Assembly (NCBI GenBank): GCA_041690135.1
Contig: JAWLHY010000001.1
Location: 1,088,001 to 1,152,000 of the forward strand
Origin: Armatimonadota bacterium
GTDB taxonomy: Bacteria; Armatimonadota; SYMT01
Direction: 5' to 3'
DNA: 64,000 bases
Part shown: positions 1,984 to 29,639 of the stretch, piece by piece
Layout: each line of letters starts with the position of its first letter
How positions within the stretch are numbered: the stretch's first letter is position 1
Notes under the pieces: generated by a model
The model's database searches: none
What the model saw: the letters and a program-made list of their open reading frames with translations, nothing else
What the model was told of the DNA's origin: nothing
Translations under genes and position numbers: made by a program

Positions 1984-2069
1984 GAGGACCTCCTACCCTA
2001 CAATCCTATCCAAGACCATTCCGAAAGGCGTGACCGGCCGGGAAGCATCGCGGCAGATTGGAGGATTGT

Positions 2070-2657
2070 GTGAAGGATGCCGGACCGGAGTGGGGCGAGT
2101 TCGCCCTGGACATGGCCCATACCCGGGAAGAGGCCGCGCGGAGGTTCGCCGAGTGGGAGCAGCGGGCACAGGCGATTCCGGGGGCGGAGGTCAGGGTCAC
2201 GGGTTGGCGGGATGCCGGCGGCGGGGAGACCTACCTGCTCTGGACCCGGTCCGAAGCGCTCGTGCGGAGGCGCCCGGGCGGGCTATTCCCCTCCGCGGGA
2301 CTCATAGCCCACTGGCGGGCCGCGCATGTCCGGCACCTCGACTTCACGCTGCGGCCGTGGCGGGATCGTCCGGCCCTGCGCGCCAGGGGGGATCTGCCGG
2401 TCTACGGTCCGTATGTGGAGAATGAGCCGTACGACCCGGAGCGGTGGGAGCTAGTCCCCAACGCCTGGGACCACGAGCACTGCCTCCTCTGCGATGTTCA
2501 CATCTGCGCGGACGGGGACCACGGGTACACGCAGGCCTACTTCAGCGCCGGCCCTGCCCACTTCGACCCGAACGGAGATGAAGTCTGGATTTGCCCGCCC
2601 TGCTTCGCGCGCTACCTCCACGGCTGGCAGCGCCTCCCGATCGATGAGACCGCATAG
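2070..2657 (+). CDS. hypothetical protein with C-terminal WDHEHCxxC...WICxxC putative metal-binding module
   Basis: GGAGG at 2060-2064 precedes GTG 2070. Motifs WDHEHCLLC and WICPPCF. Confidence 0.65.
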   Translation: MKDAGPEWGEFALDMAHTREEAARRFAEWEQRAQAIPGAEVRVTGWRDAGGGETYLLWTRSEALVRRRPGGLFPSAGLIAHWRAAHVRHLDFTLRPWRDRPALRARGDLPVYGPYVENEPYDPERWELVPNAWDHEHCLLCDVHICADGDHGYTQAYFSAGPAHFDPNGDEVWICPPCFARYLHGWQRLPIDETA

Positions 2658-2703
2658 CGGGAGTTCCGAGGCTTTCGGGGGCAGTGCCTCGCTGCTCACC
2701 CCC

Positions 2704-3852
2704 TCAGCGTCCGAGCCGGGTGAGGGTTCGGGCGTTCATTCTCCAGGCCGCCGGCTCGCCGGCCGTCACCTCCACCCCCTCCCGGCGCATGATCTGGGCC
2801 AGGGAGCGCGGGTCGGCGGCGGAGAGCTTCTCCACGGTGTCGATGCCGTTCTTGACCAGGGCTGTGCGGACTTTCGCGGGGAGCCCGGCCATCCGGTCCA
2901 GCGGCGCCGTCGCCACGCTCTCCGCTTCGGTCTCCAGGCCGAAGGCGGAAGCGATGGCCGCGCTCGCGCCGGAAGTCGTCCGCAGCGCCGCCGCTTCGCG
3001 CTCCGCGACATCTTCGACGAGCTCCTCCAGGGTGCGGTAGCTGGCGCCCTCGGGCAGGATCTCGACCAACTCGCGGAGGGGCGTGCCTCCGGAGGTGACC
3101 ACGGCGCCGTGCCTTGTGACCAGGTCTTTCTTGGTGATCGGCTGACCGGCGGGAAAAGATGTGGTGATCTCGCGGGTTTCGGCAAGGAGCTTGGCGAGCT
3201 CGCCCGCCCGGTTGACCCGGCCGCCGGTGACCGCGTCCACCCCGATGGTGTGGACGGCGGGGAGGAGCATCGTCCCCTGCGCGGTCTTCCAGACCGTCAC
3301 GTCCTTATCCCCGAGCTTGGTGGCGCCCAGGAAGGTTCCGCCGCTCACCAGGCCTCCGAAGTTCGGCATCGGTTCCACGACCGTTCCGGGGAAGGGGGTG
3401 AGACCGCCGTGGCCGCAGCACTCGAAGATGTCGGCGTTCAGGCGGTTCACCTCCGCCTTCAGCTCGTCGAGAAGCTTCCGGATGCTGCCGCGCATCTCCG
3501 CCATGCAGGCGAAGGCCTGGTCGAGGTCCTGCTTGAGGGCGTCCAGGTCTGCTTCGATGTTATGGAAGCGTTCGTTGAACCCGTCCTCCCCCACCGTCTT
3601 CTCGGCCTGAACCACGCTCTCGCCGTCAATCCAGTCCGTATGTTGGAAGCTGCGCTGGAACTTCGCCGCGCAGCCCGGATCGGTGGCCGCAAACGGCTCC
3701 CGATAGTCGAAGGTGCGCTTCGTCCTGCCGAAGTTTTCGAAGATCCAGCCACTCACCAGGATAGCGGCGTCGGAGTGGGACAGCCCCGTGCTCCGGATCT
3801 GCGTGTAGAGCTGGTCCGCCGTCATGCCTTCGATTTCCAGGCGCTCTGCCAT
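2704..3852 (-). CDS. CIS distal protein: fibre-like N-terminal motif, coiled coil, C-terminal helix-hairpin-helix-like domain
   Basis: Start moved to ATG 3852 (MAERLEIEG). Contains HTDWIDGESVVQA...GFNERFHNIEADL, a heptad-rich segment, and HhH-like MAGLPAKVRTALVKNGIDTVEKL. Last gene of the tail operon. Confidence 0.6.
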   Translation of the reverse strand: MAERLEIEGMTADQLYTQIRSTGLSHSDAAILVSGWIFENFGRTKRTFDYREPFAATDPGCAAKFQRSFQHTDWIDGESVVQAEKTVGEDGFNERFHNIEADLDALKQDLDQAFACMAEMRGSIRKLLDELKAEVNRLNADIFECCGHGGLTPFPGTVVEPMPNFGGLVSGGTFLGATKLGDKDVTVWKTAQGTMLLPAVHTIGVDAVTGGRVNRAGELAKLLAETREITTSFPAGQPITKKDLVTRHGAVVTSGGTPLRELVEILPEGASYRTLEELVEDVAEREAAALRTTSGASAAIASAFGLETEAESVATAPLDRMAGLPAKVRTALVKNGIDTVEKLSAADPRSLAQIMRREGVEVTAGEPAAWRMNARTLTRLGR

Positions 3853-3931
3853 CTTTACCCTCCGAAATCCACTACGTGCCACCCGTCTGGATGGCCAAAG
3901 GTCGAACGTGCCCGCGGGGTCGCGCCCGCTC

Positions 3932-6298
3932 TCACTCCTCCGCCGAAAGCAGCGCCGCCGTCTCCCCGCGGTGCCGCTTCCTCCGAAACTGCCGGTAAGT
4001 CCGGAAGACGGAGGGCGAAAGCGGCTCGGGAACCCCGTCGCCATCCAGGTCGACGTGCCGCTGGCGGATGGCGTATGTGTTGACTTCCACTCCCAGCGGG
4101 TAGGCGTGCTGGAGCAGGTTCATCAGGAACTCATACTGGCGGAGGTCCAGCCGCGCGTCGTCGGGCAGCTCCACCCGGAACTCGTACGGGTCCGTGAGGC
4201 CCCGGCGCGCGTAGCCGACCACCACGATCGCGGTGAGACCGGCGCCGGCGGGTACGAAGACGGTGCGGCTGCCGATCGCCTTGATCTCGCCTCCCGGCCC
4301 CTCCAGGGGCACGGCGTACCAGCGGAAGCCGGTGGCGCGACGCGCGGAGAGATTGGTACCGGCCTCCGGGAGGCCGATGGCCCCCGCTACCAGCAGCACC
4401 TCGGAGGGTCCGGTGATCAGGGGCAGCACGGACACCACGTGGTGCTTTTGCAGGATCTCCACCAGGCGGCGCAGCTCCGCACCGGCCGCAACCTGCCCCG
4501 CCAGGATCGCCTGGGCCAGGGGGTCCGGCAAGCGGAGGGTCTCCACCAGTTCCGGCGAGACGCGCTTCAGCCGCTCCACCACCGGTCCCGGTTCCCGCAG
4601 GGCGGGAAGCCCCGCCGCGCCCAGGAGGTTCAGGGCCGGATCACCCGCGGGCCGCGGACCGGCGGCACTCCAGCGGGCCGGCGCCTGCGCATCCGGGATG
4701 ACGGTCCACGCGGCGCCGCCGGAGGCGGTCCACTCCGCCAGGGCGGCCTGCAGCCCCGCCGCGAGCGCTGCGTTCGTGCCGGGATCGCCGGGCGCATGGT
4801 AGTGGGCCTCCAGTTGCACCCCGGCGCCCGGGTTGGCCGTCGAAGGACCGGTGATTGCCAGCCCGAAGGTGGGGAAGTGGCTCACGTAGAGGCGCTGCGT
4901 GTTCACCCGGTGGACCGTTCGAAGCCCGCACGGCTCCAGAAGCCAGCGTCCCTCCGGGTCCTCTGCGGGCAGCGCGGGGACCATCCGCGCGAGCAGCTCC
5001 TCCACCTCCGCGTCGGCGCTCGGTACGCGGTTCGGGTCCAGCAATGCGGAGCGCATCTGGTTCAGGTGGGCCGTCATGGGCGGGCGGAGGTCCACCCCCA
5101 GCCCCAGTTCGTAGCGGCTCCCCGCGCCTCCATCCTGCGCGCGGAGGACCTGCCACGGGGTTGCCACTCCCAGCGCGGCGCGGCAGCGACCCGCGAGGTC
5201 GAGCGCGGAGGCCAGCATGGGCGCCAGGGCCGCGCCGGCGGGGAAGGTGTAATGGGCCGCGAGCCGGTCTCGAAGCGCCTCCTCCTGCTGTCGCCGGGCA
5301 CTGGGGATGAACCGCGCGTCGTGGACCGCCTGCGCGGCGGCGGTGTCCTCCGGCCGGACCAGCCGAACCGCGCGTGTGTGGAGCAGGAAGTTGTCTCGGA
5401 ACTGCGCCCCACCGGCGCCGACCAGGTGGATCGACACCGCGAACTCGTTGTCCGCTTCCACGAGGTCGAACCGGCGCGGTTGGCCGAGCGCCCCGATCGG
5501 CCCGCGGTTCGGGTCCGCCGCGCCGCCGGGCCCGTTCAGCAGTTCGAGCAGCCGGCTCCGCGTCGGCTGCAGGAGGGGCCGGTAGAGCGCCAGGCGGCGG
5601 CGGTACTCGTCGTCCGGCTCCGCCTGCGGGACTCCGGCGCTGTCGAGCCGGGCGCGGGTGACGACCTCTCCGGCCGTGGCGTCCCAGAGGATCTCGTCCG
5701 TGAAGCGGGGCACTCCCAGGTCCGCGCCGATCAGGTCCAGGGCTCCGCCGTCCGCCGTTGCCAGGCAGCGCATCGCCGCCAATTCTCGCGCCTGGCGCCG
5801 CACGCGCTGTTTCTCCGCCCCCAGGACGTAGAGCAGCTTACCCATGTTCCCTTCCACCACGCGGACCTCCAGCCGATCGGCCAGCTCCGCCGCGGGCACG
5901 CTCGTCTCCGTCCCGTCCGGGGCGATGGCGGTGAGGGAGAGGGCAACCGTCACCGGGGCCGCGGTCCGCGTGGCGGGGTCGACCGGCGGCTGGTAGAGCG
6001 GGAGGAACGCCCCCGCTTCCGTATAGCGGAAGAACTGGAGCGGAGGAAGCGGCTCCGCGGTCCCGTCCGGGTCCAGCACTCCCTCCAAACGCAGCGCCTC
6101 CCCCTCCAGCGGCCGGGAAGGGGCGGCCAGCAGCAGCGGCTCGCGGGCGTTCCAGGTCATGCGGACCACGCCCAGCCCATCCGGAAGGAGAGCCGAGTCG
6201 CGCGCCCCTCCGGCGAACGGGCCGGTGAGGTGGGCGATCATATTCCGGTGCGAGGCCGCGCCCCACCCGTCCGGATCCTGCCACGCGGGAGTGCTCAT
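3932..6298 (-). CDS. large baseplate wedge protein (gpI/DUF2612-like core with extra domains)
   Basis: ALDLIGADLGVPR and EPDDEYRRRL are motifs typical of myophage wedge proteins. Follows baseplate-J through a TGATG stop/start overlap at 6298. Confidence 0.65.
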   Translation of the reverse strand: MSTPAWQDPDGWGAASHRNMIAHLTGPFAGGARDSALLPDGLGVVRMTWNAREPLLLAAPSRPLEGEALRLEGVLDPDGTAEPLPPLQFFRYTEAGAFLPLYQPPVDPATRTAAPVTVALSLTAIAPDGTETSVPAAELADRLEVRVVEGNMGKLLYVLGAEKQRVRRQARELAAMRCLATADGGALDLIGADLGVPRFTDEILWDATAGEVVTRARLDSAGVPQAEPDDEYRRRLALYRPLLQPTRSRLLELLNGPGGAADPNRGPIGALGQPRRFDLVEADNEFAVSIHLVGAGGAQFRDNFLLHTRAVRLVRPEDTAAAQAVHDARFIPSARRQQEEALRDRLAAHYTFPAGAALAPMLASALDLAGRCRAALGVATPWQVLRAQDGGAGSRYELGLGVDLRPPMTAHLNQMRSALLDPNRVPSADAEVEELLARMVPALPAEDPEGRWLLEPCGLRTVHRVNTQRLYVSHFPTFGLAITGPSTANPGAGVQLEAHYHAPGDPGTNAALAAGLQAALAEWTASGGAAWTVIPDAQAPARWSAAGPRPAGDPALNLLGAAGLPALREPGPVVERLKRVSPELVETLRLPDPLAQAILAGQVAAGAELRRLVEILQKHHVVSVLPLITGPSEVLLVAGAIGLPEAGTNLSARRATGFRWYAVPLEGPGGEIKAIGSRTVFVPAGAGLTAIVVVGYARRGLTDPYEFRVELPDDARLDLRQYEFLMNLLQHAYPLGVEVNTYAIRQRHVDLDGDGVPEPLSPSVFRTYRQFRRKRHRGETAALLSAEE

Positions 6299-7740
6299 CA
6301 CACAATCTCCAGGCCGGCAATGTCATCCACGAACACGGCGATCTGGTTGGACTGGAGGGCGACGTTCTGGCCCACCTGGAACCGCTCGGCGGTCTCGCCG
6401 GTGCCGGCCCCGAAGTCGATCGAGTCGATGCCGGCCGGGTAGCGGAGCAGGCGCAGCTCCAGCGCGTCGGCAATGCCGGGCTCGTTCATTACGGACCAGA
6501 CGATCTCGGAGTAGCGGACGGGGTCACCCACTTGCAGCGTGTCCACGTAGGTCCGCAGCCGGGAGACGATCCGCTCCTTCAGGTCGATCGCCGCCTGGGA
6601 AGCGTTGACGGATTGGCGGGAGCCGGTGGGCAATGGAAGCCCCCGCACCACCAGCTTCGCCTCCACGCCGATGCCGATCTCCTCTGCCTTCTCCACGCGG
6701 GGGAAGATCCCGATCGGGCGCAGGTCGTCGATCACCGACTCCACGGCCGCCTTCAGCCCGTCCGGTCCTTCCCAGATGGCGGCGGACGTGGGGGCGACCA
6801 GCACCGTGAAGTAGTACGGGCTGCCCAGGTCGCGCTCCGTCCCGAACACCCGCTCGATGAAGTTGAAGTTCCCAAAGATCGACTGGTTGATATCCAGACC
6901 GCCGAACCCGTCCCGGATGATCACCTGCCGCACCCCGGGCACCAGCGAGACCGCGATCCGGATTGCATCCACCGTCCAGACGGAGCGCGGCGCGTTCAGC
7001 AGCAGTTCCCGGTAGCGGAGGTCCGGCCACTGCCGCGCACCGCCGGTGAGGGGGGCGGTGTGCTCGATCGAGACGAGCGGCGTCCCGGCGTCTTCCGCGG
7101 CGATCACCCGTTCCGCGGCGGGGTCCAGCCGGTTGAACCGGTCGATCTTCTGCGGGTGCCCGCCGCCGGAGTCGGTGAAGCTGGGATCGAGGTCGTGCGA
7201 GGGGCCTGGGTAGAAGGCCACCACGGCCGCGTCCCGCTCCTTGTTCTCTGGGGAGAGGGTGACCGTCTCATCCAGGGAGACGTGGTGTCCGCCGGGGGTC
7301 AGCAGCCGAGTTCCGCTGCGCAGCACCAGCTTCTCCTCGCCCGGGTCCAGCGTGCCGGTGAGCTTGAGCTTGATCTTTCCCCGGGCCTGCTCGTAGGGGC
7401 GGGACAGGCCCAGCTCCTCCCCCAGGCGGCTCAGGGCGTCCCCGACCGCGGTGGAGACGTACAGGTTGTCCGACATCGCCGCGAGCGCGGCCCAGGTCCG
7501 CATGTCTTCCAGGGCCGTCAGCTCGAGCAGCTTCCGGATGGCCGAGCCGGACCCGAGGTCCAGGTCGTCTCCGAAGAGGGCGCGCGCGAGAGCCAGCTTC
7601 TCCGCCAGCAGGCGCGCGAACGGCTTGGGTACGAACCCTTCGGCCGTGATCCCGAACTCGCCCGACCCGGTGGAGCGGGTGACCGCCGCATCCACGGCGA
7701 GCACGTCCGCCACGGGAATACTGGTTACTTGCTCAGACAT
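6298..7740 (-). CDS. baseplate J / gp47 family wedge protein
   Basis: FGITAEGFVPKPF N-terminus, STAVGDALSRLGEELGLSR, TGGARQWPDLRYRELL, AVSLVPGVRQV, and C-terminal LQVGDPVRYSEI...EPGIAD. Confidence 0.9.
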   Translation of the reverse strand: MSEQVTSIPVADVLAVDAAVTRSTGSGEFGITAEGFVPKPFARLLAEKLALARALFGDDLDLGSGSAIRKLLELTALEDMRTWAALAAMSDNLYVSTAVGDALSRLGEELGLSRPYEQARGKIKLKLTGTLDPGEEKLVLRSGTRLLTPGGHHVSLDETVTLSPENKERDAAVVAFYPGPSHDLDPSFTDSGGGHPQKIDRFNRLDPAAERVIAAEDAGTPLVSIEHTAPLTGGARQWPDLRYRELLLNAPRSVWTVDAIRIAVSLVPGVRQVIIRDGFGGLDINQSIFGNFNFIERVFGTERDLGSPYYFTVLVAPTSAAIWEGPDGLKAAVESVIDDLRPIGIFPRVEKAEEIGIGVEAKLVVRGLPLPTGSRQSVNASQAAIDLKERIVSRLRTYVDTLQVGDPVRYSEIVWSVMNEPGIADALELRLLRYPAGIDSIDFGAGTGETAERFQVGQNVALQSNQIAVFVDDIAGLEIV

Positions 7741-8245
7741 CCTGCGTCACCTTTCCGAGGTCGACCGCCACCTGGTCTCCGGATACGACCTCGCACACCA
7801 CGCGTACGGAGAGCTCCCGATGCAGTTCCGGAGACGCCCCGGGCTCCACGGCGACCGCCTGTGAAGGGGCGGCGTCCAGGCGGCCGTCATCCAGCTTGAC
7901 ATCCACGATGCGGCGGATCCGGGGCTCCCGCCGGAGGACCTGGATGATGGCGACGCGGACGCGTTCCCGCACCATCACGGGGTTGGTCTCCTCCACCAGG
8001 GCGTTCAGCCCGTCAAAACCGAAGGCGGTATTGAACACGTCGTCGCCCTTCAGGGTGGTCAGGGCTACCTCCAGGCTCTGCGCCAGGTTATCCAGCCCCT
8101 CCACCCGCGCCAGGTCCCGGCCGGTAGCGCCCGGGGTGAGCCGCAGGTCCCGCCCCAGCCCCAGCCTCGGGTCGATGCGCTCGCAGGCCAGCCCCCAGCC
8201 GAGCACTTTCCTTCTGATCAGCTTCTTCTGTTCCTGTTCGGTCAT
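7733..8245 (-). CDS. gp25/GPW-like baseplate sheath initiator
   Basis: NLAQSLEVALTTLKGDDVFNTAFG and IIQVLRREPRI match the gp25 pattern. Position between tip and baseplate J. Confidence 0.85.
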   Translation of the reverse strand: MTEQEQKKLIRRKVLGWGLACERIDPRLGLGRDLRLTPGATGRDLARVEGLDNLAQSLEVALTTLKGDDVFNTAFGFDGLNALVEETNPVMVRERVRVAIIQVLRREPRIRRIVDVKLDDGRLDAAPSQAVAVEPGASPELHRELSVRVVCEVVSGDQVAVDLGKVTQDV

Positions 8246-8574
8246 CTCGCCTTCAACTTGCCCTGGTTGGCGGTGGCGCCGACGCTGCCCGTCGGGTTGC
8301 CGTCAGTGCTCCCGCCAATCGTGTCCTCCAGCATCACCCCGCGCCCTCCCACCTTCAGCTTCGATGCGGCCCCGGAGACCGAGGCCACCGAGGAACATGG
8401 CTTGGTCTTGTCGGACTGCGCGGTGGAGCAGCCGCTCACGCCTTTTCCCTGAATACCTTCCGCCAGCAGCACCGGCCGGCCGCTTACAGTCAGCTTCCCG
8501 TTCCCCGTCACCGCCACGCTCCCAGGCGAATGCCCGCAGGTCACGCGGCTGGATTCGGTCAGCACCTTGCCCAT
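8242..8574 (-). CDS. PAAR-like spike tip protein
   Basis: 110 aa directly after the spike gene. TCGH, SGC and PC Cys/His ligands and the twice-repeated K(L)xVxGRxVLL pattern resemble PAAR-like/DUF4280 tips. Confidence 0.8.
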   Translation of the reverse strand: MGKVLTESSRVTCGHSPGSVAVTGNGKLTVSGRPVLLAEGIQGKGVSGCSTAQSDKTKPCSSVASVSGAASKLKVGGRGVMLEDTIGGSTDGNPTGSVGATANQGKLKAR

Positions 8575-8582
8575 GGCTCTCC

Positions 8583-10586
8583 TCAGCTCACGTCCATGGA
8601 GCCGGAAACCGTGACTTTCACGTTCGCGGCGTCCATTTTGATGTCGCCTCCCGCCTTCAATTCGAGGTCCTGCGCCGCCTCGATCAACACCGTGCCGTCC
8701 TGCTTCACCACGATCCGGGCGCCGCTGGAGTGCTCGATGGTGACCCCGTCCGTCTCCCCGCGGGCCGGGCGCGTCCCCGCGCTGCCGAGCGTGTCCCGGC
8801 CAACGCGGACCGTCAACTCCCCCACCTCGATCACCCGGTTGCCGTCCGCATCGGTCAGGTCATTTGTGACCTTGCCGGTGTGCTCGGCCGGGACGGTATC
8901 CTCCGCGAGCGTGGAGCGCTGTTGCTCCGGCACGCCCACCGGCAGGCTCAGCCACCAGTCGCCCGGCTGCGAATCGGGTCCGTGCCCCGACTCCCACACC
9001 GCGCCGATCTCGATCGGGTCGTCGCGGCGGCCGCCGCGGTGCGTCACCACCACCCGGGTGCCGGGATAGCGGGGCAACACCAGGCCGCACCGCCCCCAGG
9101 CGAACGGAGTGGCATACGGTACGCCGGTGGCCGGTCCGGGGCTGGGCCGCTGGACCGCGAGACGGTGCGCCTGGCCGGACCGGCCGTCCCCCGGCTGGAG
9201 ACCACGCCACACAGTTACCGTCTGCGCGGGGGGCTCCTCCGCGCCCTGGGTGGTCATGCCCCGCACCTCCCCCACCTCCGTGGGGCTGGCGTTGTCCGTC
9301 TCGCGGCGCGCGGCGCGCAGCACGGCGCGGGCGGCCTCCGTCTCCGGGCTCGCGCTCGCGCCCAGGATCTCGGCTCCCGCCGGAGCGCGGCTCGCCGGCG
9401 TGTGGCAGTCCCAGGCGTCCTCGGCGCCGGTCACCTCCACTCCCGTGAGCACCGTCGCGAAGGCGCTGGTCCGGCCGAGCCGGTGCTGCACGGATTGCAC
9501 GTACAGTTGCACCGGGTGGATGATCTCGGCGGTAGGAAGAAGGGGGCTGGAGAGCAGGTCCCCCAGCGCGCCGAGCGCCCCGGCGGTGGTGGTGGAAACG
9601 TCCTCCGGCGGGAGGTCGAACTCGATCAGGTCCCCCGGCTTCAGATCGGGCCGGCCTTTCAGAGTGAGCCGGAACTGCCGCCGCACCGGCGGAGCGCCTC
9701 CGGTGGACGTGTCGAAGTTCGGGTCCGTCGGCACGGGCTCCAGCGCCTCGGTTTCGATGAGGCCCTGCAAGAACGTCACGGGCCGCACTTCGCCCTCCAG
9801 CGGGACCGGCCGCACCCCCAGGTGCAGCACGCCGGAGCGGATCAGCAGGAGCCCCCTTCCATGGCAGCCGCTTTCCGCCTCCATCGCGGCGGCGAGGTCC
9901 CGCAGCGTGTCCAGCACCGTCCGCCCGGCCTCCAGTTCCCGCCGCTCGCTGGCGGGAGGTCCCGCGGTCGGGGGGCAGGCCGGATTGGGAGTGACCCCGT
10001 GGAAGACGTAATCCGCCTCTTTCCGCAGACGCGCGGGGCCCTGCAGGAGCTGGTCCAGCGCCATCTCCAGGGTGTCCCCCGTTACCGCCTGGGGGAGGCG
10101 CGTCCGCTCCGCCAGGTCGAAGAGGCGCTCTCGGGCGGTAATTACGGTCTCATACCGGCGGGAGCCGAGACGGCGGGTGACGGACTGGATCCGCAGCACC
10201 GCCAGCAGCGCCTCGGGAATGTCTTTCCCGCTCAGGCCGAACGCGTCGGTCAGCCCCGACAGGTTCTTCAGGTAGCCGAGCACGCTGGAGTTGGTATCCC
10301 GCCAGAACAGGTAGAGGCGCACGACCGTGGGGGAGTCCGGCTTCCCCTGGGCGATGGCGGCGTAGTGCGCGTCCGTGAGCCCTTCGACGGTAAAGGTGTA
10401 GGCTCCCCCTTCCAGGCCGCCCGGCAGGGTTGCCTGGATTTCCGCGTAATAGTCGTTCCGGCTGATCTCCAGGATCGGCTTGTCGTCGACCGTTCCGTCC
10501 TCCCGCTCGCGGTGAAAGGAGAGCAGCCAGCCCGCGTCGTTCCCGGGGCGCACTTCGCCGGTCAGGGTGGCCGGAGAGAGACTCAT
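8583..10586 (-). CDS. fused baseplate hub + spike (gp27/gp5, VgrG-like)
   Basis: Start moved to ATG 10586 (MSLSPAT). Hub motif LKGRPDLKPGD...YVQSVQHRL, OB-fold PYATPFAWGRCGLVLPRYPGTRVVV...PIEIGAVW, and beta-helix tail GVTIEHSSGARIVVKQDGTVLIEAAQDLELKAGGDIKMDA. Confidence 0.85.
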   Translation of the reverse strand: MSLSPATLTGEVRPGNDAGWLLSFHREREDGTVDDKPILEISRNDYYAEIQATLPGGLEGGAYTFTVEGLTDAHYAAIAQGKPDSPTVVRLYLFWRDTNSSVLGYLKNLSGLTDAFGLSGKDIPEALLAVLRIQSVTRRLGSRRYETVITARERLFDLAERTRLPQAVTGDTLEMALDQLLQGPARLRKEADYVFHGVTPNPACPPTAGPPASERRELEAGRTVLDTLRDLAAAMEAESGCHGRGLLLIRSGVLHLGVRPVPLEGEVRPVTFLQGLIETEALEPVPTDPNFDTSTGGAPPVRRQFRLTLKGRPDLKPGDLIEFDLPPEDVSTTTAGALGALGDLLSSPLLPTAEIIHPVQLYVQSVQHRLGRTSAFATVLTGVEVTGAEDAWDCHTPASRAPAGAEILGASASPETEAARAVLRAARRETDNASPTEVGEVRGMTTQGAEEPPAQTVTVWRGLQPGDGRSGQAHRLAVQRPSPGPATGVPYATPFAWGRCGLVLPRYPGTRVVVTHRGGRRDDPIEIGAVWESGHGPDSQPGDWWLSLPVGVPEQQRSTLAEDTVPAEHTGKVTNDLTDADGNRVIEVGELTVRVGRDTLGSAGTRPARGETDGVTIEHSSGARIVVKQDGTVLIEAAQDLELKAGGDIKMDAANVKVTVSGSMDVS

Positions 10587-11218
10587 CGCCGCACCCCTTT
10601 CTTGATCTTGAACCGGGCCAGCCGTTTCGGCTGCGTGAGACCCAGCAGCGACTCCGTCTTGAACTTCGCTTCCAGCCGGGGGACGACGTTCGGGTTGGGC
10701 GGTGGGGTGGAGAAGCGCTCCACGGCCCGGTCGGCGTAGCGCCACGCCAGTGCGATCCGCGAGCCGAAGTCTCCCGCCCCCCGCATGCTTCCCGCCCGGA
10801 GATCCCAGGAGAGGATCACCACTTCCACCCGGGCGCCGGAGTCCGGCAGTCCCGCGTCCGGAAGGCACCGCCGCAGCCCCGGCACCAGCGGCACCGAGGC
10901 GAGGGTCCGTGTCCCGGAGCGCAGCAGTAGCCGCGCAGGCGGGCGCTCCACGCTCCCGACCGGATCGTCGATCCCCGCTTCCACGGGAGCCAGTCCCTCG
11001 TCACTCCGGCTGACGATCGCCTCGGGGTCCGCGTCCCGCCAGCTCTTCGCGAGTCCGGTCGGCACCAGGAGCACCAGGCGCGTCTCGGGGTCCAGGCGAA
11101 TCGCGTGCGGCAGGCCGTTCAGGATTCGCTCATCCACGACGGTGAACCCTTCCGGAGCAGCCGGTGCGCTCTCGGGAACCAGGTAGTGCTGCACGGGGAT
11201 GCGTCCGAACTCCGGCAT
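10583..11218 (-). CDS. hypothetical CIS protein in the baseplate plug/adaptor position (211 aa)
   Basis: Start moved to ATG 11218 (MPEFGRIP). Coupled to both neighbours (TGATG and ATGA overlaps). Function inferred from position only. Confidence 0.6.
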   Translation of the reverse strand: MPEFGRIPVQHYLVPESAPAAPEGFTVVDERILNGLPHAIRLDPETRLVLLVPTGLAKSWRDADPEAIVSRSDEGLAPVEAGIDDPVGSVERPPARLLLRSGTRTLASVPLVPGLRRCLPDAGLPDSGARVEVVILSWDLRAGSMRGAGDFGSRIALAWRYADRAVERFSTPPPNPNVVPRLEAKFKTESLLGLTQPKRLARFKIKKGVRR

Positions 11219-11718
11219 CAGTTTCCTCCCCAATCGGCCAACGCCCCGACCCCGATACTGGCGACATCCAACAACTTGCCGAGCGCCCCCGGCAGCGGCA
11301 TGTGCACGAGCGAGATCGAGACGTCGATCGCGTCCCGCTTCGCCGCGGAGGCGCTGAAGGAGAGGCTCTGGACCTGCATGTCCGTGCGGATCGTCATCGA
11401 GGTCACCACGATCAGGCCGGAAACCGCGCCTCCGGAGAGCGCCGCGACCGCCCCACCCCGGCGGCTGGTCTCCGCGAGCAGCTCCAGGGCCTGCTTCCAG
11501 GCGTAGCGCTCCGTGCCTACCAGCACGCCCGTCAGGGAGAGCGTGTCGTCGTGCGTTGCGACCACGGCGCGCGCGCCGGAAGAGCCGATTGGCGGCAGGT
11601 GATAGGTTTCGCTGAGGCTCATCGACGTTACCGCCCAGAGGGGGACGGTCACGAGCCCGTCCGAGAGGATCACGGAAGGCACCGCGAGGTATTTCTGAAA
11701 GCTGCTGGTGAGAGCCAT
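11218..11718 (-). CDS. putative tube initiator / Dit-like baseplate protein
   Basis: Beta-rich 166 aa (SMSLSETYHLPPIGS, DTLSLTGVL, MQVQSLSFS, IDVSISLVH) that resembles a tube fold. Lies between the tape-measure slot and the hub. Confidence 0.6.
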   Translation of the reverse strand: MALTSSFQKYLAVPSVILSDGLVTVPLWAVTSMSLSETYHLPPIGSSGARAVVATHDDTLSLTGVLVGTERYAWKQALELLAETSRRGGAVAALSGGAVSGLIVVTSMTIRTDMQVQSLSFSASAAKRDAIDVSISLVHMPLPGALGKLLDVASIGVGALADWGGN

Positions 11719-11721: not shown

Positions 11722-14700
11722 TTAGAAGAACTGCACGATCTCGTCGAAAAACTTCTCGAACTCGTCCAGGAGCGCGGTCCGGTCCGGCCGGGAGAGGATC
11801 TCTGGGCGGTCGAACGCCTGCCGCAGGATCCGCCGCAGCTCGTCCCGCACGGGCTGCAGCTCCGTCTGGGAGTAGCGCGTGCCATCCGGGTGTGACGGCC
11901 AGCGGATGAACCACTTCAGCCGGGCGAGTGTGCGGAAAGGCTTGGGGGGCGGGTCCGCCGCGTGGATCCGCAGGTCTTTCGAGAACTGGTGGACCGCTTT
12001 CCCGGTCTCCAGGATGGTGATATCCACCACCTCCTTGATCTCGACCCGCAGGTACCCCAGCGGCTCCAACGAAGGGAGGTTCAGACGGACGTCCACTTCC
12101 CGTGCCAGCCCGCCGGGACCGGAAACCGGCTCCTCGAAGCGCACCGTCGCGCCGGGGTAGGTCTTCAGCAGGTCGAACGCGGCGCGCAGGGAAGCGAGGC
12201 CGGCGATCTTCAGGTTCGCCGAGGGGCTTCCCAGGTAGGTGATCACCCCATCCAGCCCGCCGGTGGTGTGCGGCTCCACTTCTCGGATCCAGCGGAGGAT
12301 CTCCCGCCCCGTTCGGGCATCGTAGCCGGTGAGGATCGTGGTGACGGAGACCACGGTTTGCCGGCCCCGCAGCTTCGCGATCAACTCGATCGTCTTCACA
12401 TCCTCGGGGGTGAGGTCGCGGAGCCGGGCGAGCATCGCCCGGACGCTAAGGCCTCCGTAGGTGGAGGTGGTGTCCAGGAGACGCGCCAGTGTCTTCGGAG
12501 TCCCGCCCGCGTCGAGGTAGTGGAGGAGACCGCGGAACTGGTCCGCGTGCGACGCCTGCAGATAGCGCCGGATGCCGGCCAGGATCAGCCGGGTGCTTTC
12601 CCGGTCGGTGGAGGCCGCCGTGATCAGCCGTAGCTCCAGCTCCGGCACGGCACTCTGCTGTCGGAGGATCTGGAGACCCTGACGCGAGTAGGTCCGGGGG
12701 GACGCCTCCGCCACCTCGTCCAGCGCCGGCGGGAGCAGGAGCGCCCGGCCCGGAAGCAGCCGGTAGGGAGCGGTGCCGGCCGGCCCCTGCAGGAGCAGGA
12801 TCCCGCTCCCTTCATCGGTGACACGGTAGCCGGCTTTGGTGAGGCGGCTCATCAGGTGGGTGCGGCCGAGGGACGGATCGAACGGGTTGTACTCGTAGCT
12901 GCGCGCGCCCACCGGGACCAGACCGGACCCCAACACCGCGTCGGGCGGGGGCAGGAGCTTGACCGTCGGCGCCCACTCCGCCGCTGCCACCGCTTCGGCG
13001 AACCGGGCCGCCAGCTCCTGCATCTCCTTCACCTGTCCGCGGGTCAGCCCGAGCTGGGCCAGCAGGTCGTCGCTGAAGTCGGCGCTCGCCATCCGCTTGC
13101 AGACCGCCTCCAGCTCCCGGTAGATCCTTGCCTGGCGAGACTGAGCGCTGGCGAATTGCTCCTTCGAGGGTCCTCCCGCCTTCAGGATCGCCTCCATCTC
13201 CGCTCGGAGCAGGAGTTGCTCTTCGTGCAGCGTCATCAGCCTGGCGAGGGTCTCGGTCTGCGCCTCTCGCCGGAGCACCTCCAGCGCCTTCGGACCGGCG
13301 ATCAGCGCCACGATCGCGTGCAGCATCAGGCTGGCCACGACGAACGTCTCCGTCCCTTCCGGCAGCTCCCCCGCCTCCAGGGTGCTCAGCAGCACCGGCA
13401 CGCCGGTCCCGATCACCGCGGTCGAACCGAAGATGAAGACGAGCTGGGCCAGCGCCTTCTGCGGGAAGAGGGCCTTCGCCCCGGCCGAGAGCCCGGCGCC
13501 GAGGACCCGGAACGCGCCAAACAGCGCGACGTTGGTGGTGAACTCCTCGACCACCTCTCCGGGTCCGATCGACTTGTCCAGGACCAGCGCCTGCCCGGCC
13601 AGGTGGACCGTGGTGAAGGCGGCTGCCTCCGCGAGCAGGGTAACGAGGGTGCCAGCCCGGAGGACCGCGAGGCCGCCGCCCACCCCGAGGGTCACCACCA
13701 CGGCCACCAGAGTGATGCCCAGGTTGATCCAAAACTCGCGCCGGGCGCGTCGCTGCATCTCCCCCTGGATCGCCTCCAACTGGTGGACCCAGGTCTCCAG
13801 GCGCGAGCCGATGGTGTTGAAATCCGGATTGGGGAATTCCCGCTCCAGGGCCGCCTCGATCGCGTAAATCCGGTCGAACCAATCTTTCCGCATCGCCCGC
13901 GTACCCAGGTCGTTCGGGTAGCGGATGGGGTCCGTCAGGTCCCGTGCGCCCTGCCACACCGAGACGAGAGAGAGGCGCACCAGCAGCAATGACAACTGCT
14001 CCTCCACGGCTGAGACGGCGGAGAGGTACGCCACGCCGCGCGGCTGCGCCTGCGTGATGCCTAGCTCTTTCTCCAGGGAAGCGAAGAAATCCCGGGTCTG
14101 CCGCAGGTGACGATTGTAGCGGTGGTCCTCCGGCGAGTAGTAGCCGTAGTGGGCCGACTCGTGTAGCCCCCGGAGCCGGGTGCCGAGCTCGTCTAGCGCC
14201 TTCCGGACATTCTCCCACTTGCGGTCCGCTGCCCTGGCCGGCCAGCCGTCGAACGCGGTCTGCGCATCCGTCTTGAGGTCCGCGGCGATCGCGGCGTCCG
14301 GAAACGAGAAATCGACGATCTGCCGCAGCAGCTGGGAGCGTGTTTCCCGGAGTGCCCACACTTCCTCCAGTTGATCCAGGGTTTGCTCGCCGTAAATCAG
14401 CCGGAAGAGGGAGATGAAGTCGTCGATCTGCCGCACGTGCTCCAGCGTGCCGGCGATCCAGGCGTAGTTCTCGATCAGGTCGCGCTGGAGGTCGTAAAGG
14501 AGGGAGCGCCCGTACGCGTTCCCGGCCAGGATCGCGAAGATCCCGGAGATCCTCCTGTACCCGTTGGTGATGGCGGTGATCACGGGTAGCTCCGCCTTGC
14601 TCTCGCTGCTCGCTTCCAGGTAGCGGATCAGGTCGCGTCGGACCGCGATCACCGCCTCTACCAGGTCGAGGAGCGCCCGGGTGCCCCGGCTCGCTTCTTC

Positions 14701-15582
14701 CCACTCCTTCAGCAGCGCCGCCGCCTCCGGGATCCGCCGCGCCACGGTCACGATCGCCGCCGCCAGATCGAGGTCCGGGAAGAGGGAGACGTCGAGATAG
14801 AGCTGGGTTTGCGCCCGCATGAGTGAAGCGGCGATCTGGCTTGCACGCGTCTTCAGCAGCGCGCGGAGGCGCTCGCGGAACTTGCGCGCATCCTTCCGGG
14901 CCAGGTCGGCCAGCGCGCTTAGCGCCGCCTCCGTGGGAGGGGACCCGTCCGGGCGGATGGCACGGAGCACCAGGACCAGCGCGGTATCGTCGCCCGCGTA
15001 GAACTCGTCCAGAACGTCCGCCAGCGCGATGCTTCGTTCGGACACGTTCGAGGATGCCAGCCGCCGGGCCACGTCGACCGCGTCGATCGGAGGCTGCGGA
15101 TCCGGAAGGGCCAGGTCCGCGCCGGGCGGCGCGGAGAACGGGTCGCGCGCCAGGGGTACGTCCACCGGCCGACCGGCGTCCTCGTATTCCGGGATCGTGT
15201 AACGATGCCGGGTGAGCCGGAGCCGGTCCGCGCGCTCCGCCGGGTCTGGTGGGAGCGGCTCCGGCACCTCGCGCCCGTCGACCGCCGTCTCGAGCAGCCC
15301 CGCACCCTCCACGGCGCGCCGGAGCGCTCTCGCGAGTCGCGCCTCGATCTCCGCGCGCTGGGATCGGGGCACCGCATGGAGGCCGTCGCCACGCCATGTG
15401 AACTCCGGCGCCCCGAGGCAGACCCGCGCGTATCCCCCGCGCTCCCGGAGCACCACCTCCCGGGAATTCGCGAGCGCGCGGGCCGCGGCCGTTTCGAGTG
15501 CCTCTTCCAGGCACTCGCGCCGCTCCGTCAGCGCCCGCGCGTCCACCCGGATGCGCGTGGGGATCCGCACCTGCACCGGCAT
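11722..15582 (-). CDS. 1286-aa putative CIS cargo effector / tape-measure-like protein with hydrophobic core and C-terminal PD-(D/E)xK nuclease-like domain
   Basis: Long amphipathic-helical region, then several hydrophobic segments (FWINLGITLVAVVVTLGVGGG... to ...LMLHAIVALIAG). C-terminal VRFEE...REVDVRL...RVEIKEV...HQFSKD. Confidence 0.7.
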   Translation of the reverse strand: MPVQVRIPTRIRVDARALTERRECLEEALETAAARALANSREVVLRERGGYARVCLGAPEFTWRGDGLHAVPRSQRAEIEARLARALRRAVEGAGLLETAVDGREVPEPLPPDPAERADRLRLTRHRYTIPEYEDAGRPVDVPLARDPFSAPPGADLALPDPQPPIDAVDVARRLASSNVSERSIALADVLDEFYAGDDTALVLVLRAIRPDGSPPTEAALSALADLARKDARKFRERLRALLKTRASQIAASLMRAQTQLYLDVSLFPDLDLAAAIVTVARRIPEAAALLKEWEEASRGTRALLDLVEAVIAVRRDLIRYLEASSESKAELPVITAITNGYRRISGIFAILAGNAYGRSLLYDLQRDLIENYAWIAGTLEHVRQIDDFISLFRLIYGEQTLDQLEEVWALRETRSQLLRQIVDFSFPDAAIAADLKTDAQTAFDGWPARAADRKWENVRKALDELGTRLRGLHESAHYGYYSPEDHRYNRHLRQTRDFFASLEKELGITQAQPRGVAYLSAVSAVEEQLSLLLVRLSLVSVWQGARDLTDPIRYPNDLGTRAMRKDWFDRIYAIEAALEREFPNPDFNTIGSRLETWVHQLEAIQGEMQRRARREFWINLGITLVAVVVTLGVGGGLAVLRAGTLVTLLAEAAAFTTVHLAGQALVLDKSIGPGEVVEEFTTNVALFGAFRVLGAGLSAGAKALFPQKALAQLVFIFGSTAVIGTGVPVLLSTLEAGELPEGTETFVVASLMLHAIVALIAGPKALEVLRREAQTETLARLMTLHEEQLLLRAEMEAILKAGGPSKEQFASAQSRQARIYRELEAVCKRMASADFSDDLLAQLGLTRGQVKEMQELAARFAEAVAAAEWAPTVKLLPPPDAVLGSGLVPVGARSYEYNPFDPSLGRTHLMSRLTKAGYRVTDEGSGILLLQGPAGTAPYRLLPGRALLLPPALDEVAEASPRTYSRQGLQILRQQSAVPELELRLITAASTDRESTRLILAGIRRYLQASHADQFRGLLHYLDAGGTPKTLARLLDTTSTYGGLSVRAMLARLRDLTPEDVKTIELIAKLRGRQTVVSVTTILTGYDARTGREILRWIREVEPHTTGGLDGVITYLGSPSANLKIAGLASLRAAFDLLKTYPGATVRFEEPVSGPGGLAREVDVRLNLPSLEPLGYLRVEIKEVVDITILETGKAVHQFSKDLRIHAADPPPKPFRTLARLKWFIRWPSHPDGTRYSQTELQPVRDELRRILRQAFDRPEILSRPDRTALLDEFEKFFDEIVQFF

Positions 15583-15585: not shown

Positions 15586-15861
15586 CTACACGTTCTCCAT
15601 CCCCTGCGCCAGGCGCCGCAGGGTTTCCTGGATGATCGTCTCCGGGTCGATCGGGTCCGGCGCCGCCCGCACCTCGATCTCCACCGGGAAGAGGTACTGG
15701 ATCACGGCCTGCTGGTCTTCCAGCACCCGCTCCGCCTGCGCCTCGCTGCCGGCCGCGGGGAGGATGAGCTCCCCCTCGTGGACGAGCGCGATACCCGTGC
15801 GGCGCACCCGCGCGGCCCGTCGTTCCCCGTCCCCGTTTCCGTCCGCGTCTCTAATCGGCAC
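15586..15861 (-). CDS. 91-aa protein resembling an isolated tape-measure C-terminal module
   Basis: GGGAGG RBS before GTG 15861. TGIALVHEGELILPA resembles the HxGExV/ILP motif near the C-termini of phage tape-measure proteins. Confidence 0.65.
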   Translation of the reverse strand: MPIRDADGNGDGERRAARVRRTGIALVHEGELILPAAGSEAQAERVLEDQQAVIQYLFPVEIEVRAAPDPIDPETIIQETLRRLAQGMENV

Positions 15862-15885: not shown

Positions 15886-16323
15886 TTACGGGATCGAGAC
15901 GGCGGCGCCGCTCTTCGGCTCCGCGGACGCGGCCAAGCTGAAGCCGGAGAAGGTCGCGCTCGGCGCGCCGGAAATACTGGCGGAAGTGGGCGTGGCGCTG
16001 GTGATGATGCACTCCTTCATCACCACCGTTTTGAAGGCCCAGTCGTCCCCGCCATCACTCTCCTGCAGCAGGATGTCGAACCGCTTCCCCTGCAGGGCGA
16101 GGGCTGTCAGCTTGGCCGCGGCGTCCCCGATCGCCTTCACGGTCATCGAAAAGGAGATCGCCTGCGGAGAGTAGACGACGCCGATGTGCGTCTGCTCCAG
16201 GGAGTGCAGCACCTCCGCGTTCAGGGAGAAGGAAGGCGAAAAAGAGTCGATGGGCGTCACGTTGACCGTGTTGCCGTCTTCGTCCGTGTAGGAGACGGCC
16301 AGGCGGGTTTTCCAATCAGGCAT
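15886..16323 (-). CDS. contractile tail tube protein
   Basis: 145-aa beta-rich protein right after the sheath (ISFSMTVK, FDILLQE, VVMKECIITSATP, APSATFSGFSL). Confidence 0.8.
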   Translation of the reverse strand: MPDWKTRLAVSYTDEDGNTVNVTPIDSFSPSFSLNAEVLHSLEQTHIGVVYSPQAISFSMTVKAIGDAAAKLTALALQGKRFDILLQESDGGDDWAFKTVVMKECIITSATPTSASISGAPSATFSGFSLAASAEPKSGAAVSIP

Positions 16324-16401: not shown

Positions 16402-17580
16402 TTAGAAGCTGAGGGCCAGGTTCACCACCAGGCGGTGTACGGCCGGTCCGTACTTGACGGACACGTTCAGATCCACCAACCGGTTGGCCCGGGCCGTGGT
16501 GACGATGCTGTTGTCCGTCGGGGTGCGCGCGCTCTCGGGGATGTTGAGGATGTTCAGGACCGGGATATCCACGGAGTAGCTGTCGATCACTGCGCTCCGC
16601 TGCAGCGGCCCCAGGATCCCCTCCACGCGCGTTTTTACCTGGGTGAGGCCGGCGCGGGTGATGCGCGCGTCGCCCACCAGCCCGATCAGCCCGGCCTTCA
16701 GGCGGAAGTCGATGTCGTCCAGGGTGCGAACCAGGTCGATGTAGAGCAGGCTCGCGTCCGTGGTGAAGGCGCGACCTTCCGCGAAATGGAGGCTCTCCCC
16801 CACGATCAGGTCCGGATCGATGATCGGGAGGATGTTCTCTTCCGACAGCCCGATGATCTCGGAAGGGCTGTACTGGCTCTCCACCGGCATGCTGAGGTCC
16901 CGGATCTTCTTGAGCACGATAGAGACGTGCGGGGGGAAGCCCGCCATGGCCGCCATCGCGGCGGTAGCCGCGTCCCCGGTGGCGCCGCGGGCCGCGACCA
17001 CGACCATCCGGCTGGAGGAGCTTTTCAGCGGGCCCATCGCGGCCTTGACCGTGTCCAGGTACGTGGCGGACTTGGCGGTCGCCGGGTCGACCATCGCCAC
17101 CCCGATCCGCTTCAGCCCGCCGGCCGACATGGCCTCCACATGTGCCTTTAGAGCCGTCAGGTTGGTCGCCGGAGTGGTGCCCGTGGCCGCCGCCCCCACG
17201 CTCACCTCGTTGGCCAGGGAAACGAAGTTGACGTCGTCCGCGGCTTCCAGGGAGGCGAGCGCGGCGGCGTAATTGTCCCCATCTACCCGCACGCCATAGA
17301 TCTTGGACGGACCGGGATTCTGCGCCAGCGCCAGCTTGAGCGACTGATAGAGAACGGTCTCCGCCACCGTGCCGTCCGTGTTCCGTTTCGCGAACAGGTC
17401 CGCCGCCTGATCGAGCGTGTCCACCCGCAGCGGCTTGTTTACCGGGGCGGTGCCGCCGTCCGCGCCCGCCGGCGTCTTGCCGACCACGGCGATCACCCCG
17501 GTCGCGCGCTGCGCCACGGGCACCAGCCCCGAGGTATCGATCTTGACCTCCACGAAGGGGTAGGCTGCTGCAACTGCCAT
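16402..17580 (-). CDS. contractile tail sheath protein (compact, 392 aa)
   Basis: AGGAG RBS. N-terminal YPFVEVKID...GVIAVVGKT. C-terminal sheath domain YIDLVRTLDDI...ITRAGLTQVKTRVEGILGPLQRSAVIDSYSV...RLVDLNVSVKYGPAVHRLVVNL. Confidence 0.88.
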   Translation of the reverse strand: MAVAAAYPFVEVKIDTSGLVPVAQRATGVIAVVGKTPAGADGGTAPVNKPLRVDTLDQAADLFAKRNTDGTVAETVLYQSLKLALAQNPGPSKIYGVRVDGDNYAAALASLEAADDVNFVSLANEVSVGAAATGTTPATNLTALKAHVEAMSAGGLKRIGVAMVDPATAKSATYLDTVKAAMGPLKSSSSRMVVVAARGATGDAATAAMAAMAGFPPHVSIVLKKIRDLSMPVESQYSPSEIIGLSEENILPIIDPDLIVGESLHFAEGRAFTTDASLLYIDLVRTLDDIDFRLKAGLIGLVGDARITRAGLTQVKTRVEGILGPLQRSAVIDSYSVDIPVLNILNIPESARTPTDNSIVTTARANRLVDLNVSVKYGPAVHRLVVNLALSF

Positions 17581-29626: not shown

Positions 29627-29639
29627 AGAAGGAAGATTG

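Follow-up and report, generated by a model that had tools for sequence, protein, structure and literature searches.

P0001, a 1286-residue protein encoded in a 64,000-nucleotide stretch of an Armatimonadota genome (positions 1,088,001 to 1,152,000 of contig JAWLHY010000001.1, assembly GCA_041690135.1; hereafter, the window), probably serves as a large cargo for a compact contractile injection system (CIS); it would be expelled from the particle, and its predicted nuclease domain would act on nucleic acid. Its gene is the longest open reading frame (ORF) of an operon of 12-13 closely packed contractile-tail genes (minus strand, about 1177/2704-18680), and it lies directly upstream of the baseplate genes. 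The protein joins an N-terminal domain that is conserved between syntenic loci to a long middle part with a hydrophobic cluster and to a C-terminal domain (C-domain) with the predicted fold and the conserved catalytic-type residues of PD-(D/E)xK nucleases; this nuclease module is fused to the large protein in some loci and is a separate downstream gene in others. A preliminary description made from the letters of the window had proposed that one protein in the tape-measure slot might serve as tube ruler, translocon, and DNase. The analysis reported here confirmed the observation behind this proposal and supported its interpretation in part.

Since the G+C content of the window ranges from 61 to 74%, long chance ORFs are plentiful in it. 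That P0001 is such an ORF was ruled out by its G+C content by codon position (GC1, 0.72; GC2, 0.47; GC3, 0.89), which is the signature of real genes here, and by the existence of both full-length and partial homologues. The minus-strand ORF called in the preliminary description thus stands as a gene with an uninterrupted translation, and it is present in a single copy in its own genome. Scans of P0001 against Pfam, NCBIfam, and PHROGs returned no family match, and a search of its sequence against the PDB yielded chance-level rows only.

The C-domain very likely adopts a restriction-endonuclease-like fold, an assignment that rests on the consistency of the fold-search rows, the topology, and the placement of residues in predicted structures, taken together. 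An AlphaFold2 (AF2) model of residues 1000-1286 built from four homologues reached a predicted local distance difference test (pLDDT) score of 83 and a predicted template modeling (pTM) score of 0.80, and a model of residues 1087-1286 built from a 57-row alignment reached a pLDDT of 96.3 and a pTM of 0.90. Both models have the same order of elements, with a core of the form alpha-beta-beta-beta-alpha-beta; DSSP assigned them in the shorter model to H36-55, E60-68, E74-82, E91-97, H110-123, and E136-140 (model numbering). In these models, the first three strands bear, in turn, E1150, D1164, and E1181-x-K1183, and Q1199 and D1203 lie on the following helix. The canonical PD-(D/E)xK arrangement is an alpha-beta-beta-beta-alpha-beta core whose second strand bears an acidic residue and whose third bears (D/E)xK, and the earlier suggestion of such a fold was therefore borne out by the models. 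The four strings on which that suggestion had been based, with their E...VD...EIK...Q spacing, were all located (RFEE at residues 1148-1151, REVDVRL at 1161-1167, RVEIKEV at 1179-1185, and HQFSKD at 1198-1203), and E1150, D1164, E1181, K1183, and Q1199 were invariant in the first three homologues. The "long helical body" of the preliminary description was checked in the model of residues 1000-1286, where it held as far as about residue 1142; from there on, the model is the alpha/beta core.

Fold searches with the 1087-1286 model returned mostly nucleases. Nuclease-bearing entries, among them Cas4, RecE, TnsA, MspJI, Card1, HamA, arenavirus endonuclease, and EcoRI, made up 37 of the 43 Foldseek rows shown, all of which were non-significant. 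A VIA-wide search, which is independent of Foldseek, gave 50 rows, 37 of which were nuclease type by title (nucleases, restriction enzymes, and nuclease-type toxin or defence proteins), 8 clearly unrelated, and 5 of unknown function. Its matches included Hachiman (8zue_A; Z = 8.0 over 167 aligned residues, root mean square deviation [RMSD] 4.5), an XisH-type protein (2okf_B; Z = 7.8 over 109 aligned residues, RMSD 3.0), 1y88_A (Z = 7.1), Card1 (6wxw_A; Z = 6.9), and CdiA-CT (4g6v_A; Z = 6.2).

An exhaustive HMMER search of 1.84 billion representatives with a three-sequence C-domain profile found 121 C-domain proteins at E ≤ 0.001, 59 of them at E ≤ 1e-10 and 15 at E ≤ 1e-30. In the set of 123 sequences formed by these representatives together with P0001 and its homologue P0014, E1150 was kept in 113, R1161 in 119, D1164 in 120, E1181 in 122, K1183 in 120, and D1203 in 118; Q1199 was kept in 91, and a glutamate took its place in a further 24. 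Of the 118 sequences spanning the core, 115 had an intact D...(D/E)xK motif, and P0068, P0118, and P0128 did not. Such conservation of the motif and its neighbours argues for an active site.

The C-domain occurs behind more than one kind of N terminus. Sixty-one of the 123 sequences are at least 900 residues long; in 52 of these long proteins, the C-domain ends within 60 residues of the C terminus, and 53 have a hydrophobic segment. The P0001-type N-terminal domain was found in 26 of them after three rounds of local hidden Markov model (HMM) searching, and 5 have an HExxH-type motif, all of which were confirmed to carry PF13699 (eCIS_core, or DUF4157; E = 1e-21 to 1e-32); the remaining 30 have other N termini or are too divergent to classify. 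Residues 872-1252 of P0001 aligned by BLASTP with one of the eCIS_core proteins, P0065, at 28% identity over 413 columns (E = 2e-21), and P0065 carries PF13699 at E = 9e-32. Many of the short C-domain matches are fragments: only 35 of 62 start with methionine, and P0018 is a fragment of a close P0001 relative. The C-domain is internal in 9 of the long proteins, including P0033 (1541 residues), where it is followed by an extension of ~270 residues (~1276-1541) that consists of two similar repeats; a fused immunity-like or targeting part is conceivable there.

The N-terminal domain (N-domain; ~125 residues) is the sole part of the large protein that is conserved in all four syntenic loci described below, and we presume it to be a docking or loading adaptor. 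A word-based search with its profile found 16 proteins of 253 to 1585 residues, and the members of this set above 900 residues, together with P0002 from an earlier homologue search, form a family of 15 large proteins. The domain has no Pfam match, and on sequence comparison it appears to be unrelated to eCIS_core: PF13699 was detected neither in P0001 at E values up to 0.01 nor in P0004, P0005, P0009, P0012, and P0014 at E values up to 5, although the same Pfam scan does detect PF13699 in the five C-domain relatives, and hhalign gave a probability of 0.5% for the N-domain profile against eCIS_core regions. Predicted complexes of the N-domain with g166, the 166-residue product of the gene directly downstream of P0001, scored 0.00 in two runs without controls and speak neither for nor against binding.

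Between these two ends lies the cluster of hydrophobic helices that the preliminary description had placed at about 13290-13735, ahead of the nuclease-like tip. A Kyte-Doolittle scan (19-residue window, threshold ≥1.6) reproduced it, with hydrophobic stretches at residues 616-656, 710-735, and 743-770, a pattern of multiple putative transmembrane helices like that of Tme-like effectors. Each of the 15 N-domain proteins above 900 residues has one or more strong hydrophobic segments.

Three further loci share their gene order with the window, so that the order is identical in four of four: L001, from a Candidatus Acidoferrum metagenome-assembled genome, and two loci from other genomes of its own phylum, L005 and L006. 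In each of them, as in the window, the large gene sits between the tube-like gene with the 91-residue ORF g91 on one side and g166 and the spike, gp25-like, and gp6-like genes on the other, which upholds the earlier placement of P0001 in the tape-measure slot. The structural neighbours are 41 to 81% identical across the four loci, whereas the large protein is conserved only over its first ~120-150 residues (38 to 60% identity) and measures 1415, 1055, and 1585 residues in the three other loci. Genes outside the conserved module differ from locus to locus. Scans for further loci yielded 1 from 599 pattern matches in genome contigs and 3 from 174 in metagenomes, and no locus was found among 408 pattern matches in viral contigs. 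In a sample of the phylum, 2 of 400 other genomes, those of L005 and L006, matched, both over the N-terminal ~113-145 profile positions only.

The gene for g166 starts 3 nucleotides past the P0001 stop codon. Three other loci have a g166 of 65 to 69% identity beside large proteins that differ, so g166 is a conserved structural neighbour and not an immunity gene, a role for which it was ruled out as too conserved. The earlier statements that the next gene looks structural and that no immunity gene adjoins P0001 are therefore both correct, and the downstream gene is conserved and structural in all four loci. The further suggestion that a missing immunity gene points to a eukaryotic target or to self-killing was weak. 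It is known that eCIS (extracellular CIS) toxins frequently lack immunity genes as a general feature (PMC8213781), and Tme, the tapemeasure-related effector discussed below, acts on the DNA of its own producer (PMC11126660); the absence of such a gene favours no target over another.

Comparison of the large proteins revealed a mobile nuclease module, which changes its N-terminal context and is either fused or split off. Among the 15 N-domain proteins above 900 residues, 5 carry the C-domain (P0001, P0002, P0003, P0009, and P0014). P0012 tracks P0001 as far as core strand 1 and diverges after it, P0005 (1585 residues) has an unrelated C-terminal end, and 8 proteins of ~990-1055 residues, here called type B, are without the C-domain. 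In all three type B loci with genomic context (L005, L007, and L008), the large gene is separated from the g166 homologue by an extra gene. The extra gene of L007 (459-487 residues), which follows a shorter large protein, encodes the same C-domain (E = 3.6e-8 to P0003), and that of L008 is 99% identical to it except that it is missing the stretch bearing the conserved E and D. The product of the L005 extra gene (L005_b483; 483 residues) is common to the others in its N-terminal part only and has a different string, E...PGTD...IDNK. Stand-alone proteins of ~460-505 residues that correspond to the split layout recur among the representatives (P0019, P0028, P0097, P0100, and P0127). The preliminary description had asked whether homologues swap their C termini, and they do so in the sense of these fusions and separations; the ends themselves belong mostly to one conserved family. 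When the C-domain profile was aligned by hhalign with the alternative ends, probabilities were 8.4% for P0012, 3.1% for L005_b483, 0.3% for P0005, and 0.1% for P0004, so the PD-(D/E)xK-like strings in these ends are motif-level observations only. As a separate observation, the extra gene at 4583-5907 of L008 is broken into ORFs of 347 and 114 residues relative to its counterpart at 2914-4377 of L007, and the large gene of L007, like L008 a metagenome locus, itself appears to be split (2-2539 and 2316-3005); these breaks could be natural inactivation or an assembly artefact.

The closest described counterpart of P0001 is Tme (BN159_7576; Nagakubo et al. 2024, PMC11126660), the tapemeasure-related effector in the CIS of Streptomyces davawensis. 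Tme is encoded by the largest ORF of its cluster, immediately upstream of the baseplate genes; it has an N-terminal DUF4157 domain and multiple predicted transmembrane helices and is remotely similar to phage tape measures. The EndA-like endonuclease at its C terminus is toxic in Escherichia coli, and mutation of a catalytic His abolishes the toxicity; the protein co-elutes with the spike and tube initiator, is membrane associated, and is required for extracellular DNA release and sporulation. The same source defines "tme-like" genes by ORF length, an N-terminal DUF4157 domain, and synteny and places them in a CIS group spread across distant phyla. P0001 and Tme are alike in being the largest ORF of their cluster, in gene position, and in having predicted mid-protein transmembrane helices, a nuclease-type C-domain, the lack of an adjacent immunity gene, and a CIS lineage found in distant phyla, which on the P0001 side is seen from the relatives of the putative sheath. 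They differ in that P0001 has no N-terminal DUF4157 domain by Pfam and hhalign, in that its nuclease domain is restriction-endonuclease-like rather than EndA-like with DRGH/H-N-N motifs, in its length (the Tme C-domain alone lies at residues 2030-2247), and in the lack of profile similarity to phage tape measures in Pfam, NCBIfam, and PHROGs. Because it is without DUF4157 and has a different nuclease fold, we file P0001 outside the Tme family, as a protein that would work like Tme rather than a member of it.

Other CIS cargo proteins share parts of this design. Geller et al. (2021, PMC8213781) describe DUF4157-toxin proteins of eCIS with linkers of >1000 residues and a "restriction endonuclease," EAT9, that is toxic to E. 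coli. P0001 resembles these proteins in its order of N-terminal adaptor, long linker, and C-terminal toxin-type domain but has no DUF4157, even though five of its C-domain relatives carry PF13699. XisH is listed among eCIS-associated domains by Danov et al. (2024, PMC11297309), and the XisH-type protein above is the second-best fold match of the P0001 C-domain. The research group that described Tme also described Sle1/Sle2, which belong to the SLP of Streptomyces lividans (Nagakubo et al. 2026, PMC13277306). Sle1 resembles P0001 as a cargo related to tape measures, with an exchangeable functional domain as well as a transmembrane hairpin, and the Sle1/Sle2 adaptor can be a separate protein, comparable to the fused and split P0001-type forms. 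Unlike P0001, Sle1 is encoded outside the structural operon, has no nuclease domain, and uses a DUF4157 protein as its adaptor; particles of the Sle1/Sle2 double mutant look normal, hence Sle1 is not a ruler.

Afp/PVC-type eCIS have an Afp15-type AAA ATPase and a DUF4255 terminator, neither of which was recognizable by Pfam in any ORF of the conserved P0001 module. The C-domain shares its fold class with PD-(D/E)xK toxins such as CdiA-CT (4g6v) and TseT of the type VI secretion system (7dym; Z = 5.3), although P0001 differs from these and from the Pfam Tox-REase families in having no HMM membership, no immunity partner, and a different delivery machine. Phage tape measures are very long proteins whose hydrophobic segments have been proposed to form a membrane channel after ejection, and some have embedded enzymatic domains; P0001 has the same gene slot, is long, and has hydrophobic segments, but there is no family-level match.

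A ruler, translocon, and DNase in one protein thus comes close to a kind already published for Tme. What is new is the alternative N-domain, the dedicated nuclease-fold family that also occurs in DUF4157 proteins, and the existence of fused as well as split forms in nature. In a limited literature search, we found no CIS cargo that combines a non-DUF4157 head with a PD-(D/E)xK end.

In the mechanism that we envisage, the N-domain would dock P0001 to a conserved core part, for example, on the hub or tube-initiator side, and the long middle part would occupy the lumen of the tube, where its hydrophobic helices would be shielded; g91 may be the chaperone of P0001. Contraction of the sheath would then expel the protein, the hydrophobic helices would enter a membrane, and the C-domain would cut nucleic acid on its far side. 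Because the module holds no other candidate, P0001 may also be the length ruler.

Several points weigh against this proposal. The identities of the sheath and tube are putative, based as they are on language-model features, source names, and gene position, and the N-domain has neither a fold nor a partner that is known. The hub anchors canonical tape measures at their C terminus, whereas the N terminus is the conserved end of P0001, and P0001 matched none of the tape-measure families in Pfam, NCBIfam, and PHROGs, although such proteins are notoriously divergent. For the C-domain, Foldseek found no match in the PDB at E ≤ 0.001 with either model; all fold-search scores are middling, the best Z being 8.0, and Z values below 8 can reflect a common arrangement; and residues 1000-1286 gave no Pfam match to Tox-REase or any other nuclease family at E values up to 5. 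Finally, a cytoplasmic nuclease with intact active-site residues and no immunity gene would call for a self-protection step in the producer.

Alternatively, P0001 might act in its own producer. The hydrophobic helices would then anchor P0001, and perhaps the machine, in the producer's cytoplasmic membrane, and the nuclease would act on producer DNA without injection into another cell, with outcomes such as extracellular DNA release, programmed death, or abortive infection. Tme, which is membrane associated in its producer and drives extracellular DNA release there (PMC11126660), is a precedent; the absence of an immunity gene, the large sensor kinases that flank the operon, and the fact that Pfam and PHROGs recognized no fibre-like gene in the module all suit such a role, as do the defence nucleases HamA, Card1, Can2, Avs3, and SduA among the top fold matches, which may, however, reflect a shared fold only. 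Since the same data fit injection into foreign cells, and since phage tape measures that are ejected usually have hydrophobic segments too (discussed in PMC11126660), we regard action confined to the producer as unlikely.

A purely structural tape measure, whose non-catalytic C-domain nucleates or plugs the baseplate hub and whose helices are the usual tape-measure hydrophobic segments, would account for the classical slot, for the absence of another candidate ruler in the 13-gene module, and for the nuclease-like module always adjoining the g166 homologue, whether fused or split; the C termini of tape measures normally lie in the hub. We nevertheless find it quite improbable, given that E, D, ExK, and Q/E are kept almost throughout the 123 sequences, as would be expected of an active site, that the module can be a separate protein or joined to an unrelated N-terminal domain, that type B large proteins do without it altogether, and that body and C terminus are unrelated between loci whose hub, tube, and sheath are 41 to 81% identical. 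The constant N-domain with its varying bodies and ends, on the other hand, recalls the polymorphic-toxin cassettes of CdiA, Rhs, and evolved VgrG, in which freely swapping tips follow a constant head and are paired with cognate immunity genes, and the preliminary description had called the cargo polymorphic-toxin-like. Other ends do occur in a few cases (P0012, L005_b483, and P0005), ESM Atlas leads for the C-domain point to Tox-REase-7 (0.90) and Tox-REase-2 (0.86), and CdiA-CT and TseT are among the fold rows. The tip is not hypervariable, however: one C-domain family with 121 representatives dominates and accounts for 5 of the 15 large N-domain proteins. The alternative ends are only putative toxins, with hhalign probabilities of at most 8.4%, no Pfam Tox-REase match was found at E values up to 5, and no immunity gene adjoins the large gene in any of the four loci, so that a strict cassette of this kind is very improbable.

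Beyond the cargo role favoured here, a wider proposal is rather doubtful, namely, that P0001, in a CIS lineage that is widespread and ATPase-less, is at once a true length ruler, a membrane-inserting conduit, and a PD-(D/E)xK DNase that is active, with the N-domain as a second, previously unrecognized CIS loading adaptor that is functionally interchangeable with DUF4157 and with a nuclease that can be loaded in cis or in trans. If true, it would amount to a natural two-part cargo-loading system for a contractile particle. Tape-measure-related effectors are a recently recognized class of CIS cargo that has so far been defined by DUF4157 and studied only in Streptomyces. The P0001 locus offers a Tme-type design from other parts: an unrelated N-domain in proteins of 990 to 1585 residues and a dedicated restriction-endonuclease-fold family of about 121 representative clusters that also ends bona fide DUF4157 proteins. 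With it, the search for CIS cargo can extend to proteins without DUF4157; it provides a pair of domains whose interchange could reveal how cargo is recognized, and its natural cis and trans variants of the nuclease module would allow loading rules to be tested in a compact machine of 12-13 genes. A conserved nuclease active site without an immunity gene is the same puzzle that eCIS toxins pose generally.

The features of the locus are collected in Table 1. Scans against Pfam, NCBIfam, and PHROGs returned nothing for g91, g145, g392, g316, g166, g761, and g110. The putative sheath, g392, had ESM Atlas feature scores of 0.97 to 0.98 to clusters with Phage_sheath_1/1C, which serve as a lead only, and some of its relatives carry the source name "tail sheath"; it had no sequence match in the PDB, a profile search included. 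Profile searches of the PDB likewise gave no match for the tube-like g145 or for g166. The profile match of g761 is confined to its C-terminal 52 positions and is to chain 7aef_q, which we take to belong to an AlgoCIS baseplate entry. The listed GTG start of g761 gives rise to an Arg/Gly/Pro-rich leader (the first ~90 residues) that is not conserved in the other loci, where BLAST alignments begin at residues 20 to 91; the true start is probably further downstream. The PF04965 match of the gp25-like g170 (E = 1.2e-5) scored 25.4 bits, below the cut-off of 27.2, and its phrog_975 match had an E value of 1e-7.

Table 1. Positions in the window of P0001, its parts, and the neighbouring genes of the contractile-tail operon
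Feature	Position	Strand	Basis or remark
P0001, large cargo/tape-measure-slot protein, 1286 residues	11722-15582	minus	Uninterrupted translation, GC3 0.89, homologues
N-terminal domain, residues 1-127, MPVxVxIPxRxRVD...RGGY...W.G	15202-15582	minus	BLAST, alignment
Hydrophobic cluster, residues 616-770, about 3-4 membrane-type helices	13273-13737	minus	Kyte-Doolittle scan
Module also present in eCIS_core (DUF4157) proteins, residues 872-1252: small alpha/beta part, helical part, nuclease-like core	11827-12969	minus	BLASTP against P0065
C-terminal domain, residues 1087-1286, predicted restriction-endonuclease-like (PD-(D/E)xK-type) fold	11725-12324	minus	AF2, fold search, motif
Key codon E1150	12133-12135	minus	
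Key codon D1164	12091-12093	minus	
Key codon E1181	12040-12042	minus	
Key codon K1183	12034-12036	minus	
Key codon Q1199	11986-11988	minus	
g316, 316 residues, first gene of module, conserved	17730-18680	minus	47-52% identity in three loci; no family match
g392, putative tail sheath	16402-17580	minus	ESM Atlas lead; relatives named "tail sheath" by sources
g145, 145 residues, tube-like	15886-16323	minus	Position and size only; 59-81% identity in three loci
g91, 91 residues, directly upstream of P0001, possible assembly chaperone	15586-15861	minus	Position and size only; 58-65% identity
g166, 166 residues, directly downstream of P0001, possible tube initiator/hub adaptor	11218-11718	minus	Position only; 65-69% identity
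g761, 761 residues, spike-like protein	8583-10868	minus	Profile match to 7aef_q, E = 1.3e-5
g110, 110 residues, follows spike, tip/PAAR-like	8242-8574	minus	Position only; no Pfam match
g170, gp25-like baseplate wedge	7733-8245	minus	PF04965 and phrog_975
g480, gp6/baseplate-J-like wedge	6298-7740	minus	phrog_6, E = 7e-35
g789, large baseplate protein	3932-6301	minus	phrog_4056, E = 2e-4; 42-54% identity in three loci
g446, last gene in common with L001 (45% identity)	2704-4044	minus	

The search for sheath relatives returned at least 742 proteins at E ≤ 1e-5 among 8000 scored candidates. The 120 relatives listed are 56 to 74% identical to the sheath of the window and come from cyanobacteria, gamma- and betaproteobacteria, Nitrospira, acidobacteria, and other hosts. 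Relatives so numerous and so broadly spread suggest that this compact contractile-tail lineage is both widespread and well conserved.

At the distal end of the operon, the ORFs at 1177-1983 (minus strand, 268 residues) and 2058-2657 (plus strand, 199 residues) have no family match and no counterpart in the other three loci; if the locus has any immunity-type or accessory gene, these are the candidates. A hybrid sensor kinase of 1347 residues (18941-22984, minus strand) with GAF, HisKA, HATPase, two receiver, PAS, and second HATPase domains lies on one flank of the operon, and a PAS/GAF protein (2-973, minus strand) lies on the other; either may regulate the machine. A sigma-54 activator in L001 stands upstream of the module in place of the sensor kinase. 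The region beyond the kinase (23467-31145) encodes a cytochrome P450, an acyltransferase_3 protein, a CBM11-like protein, and an M32 carboxypeptidase. Since no capsid, terminase, or integrase was found among these ordinary chromosomal genes, there is no evident prophage to which the tail-like module would belong.

A plasmid search with the sheath had as its sole find a distant CIS of Streptomyces canus (plasmid NZ_CP109336.1, 13351-33822), whose sheath is 32% identical and whose layout is different, with no large gene between tube and baseplate. This cluster has a 1313-residue "AHH domain-containing protein" at its 3' end and a "DNA/RNA non-specific endonuclease" gene upstream and is thus another contractile cluster that is paired with nuclease-type proteins.

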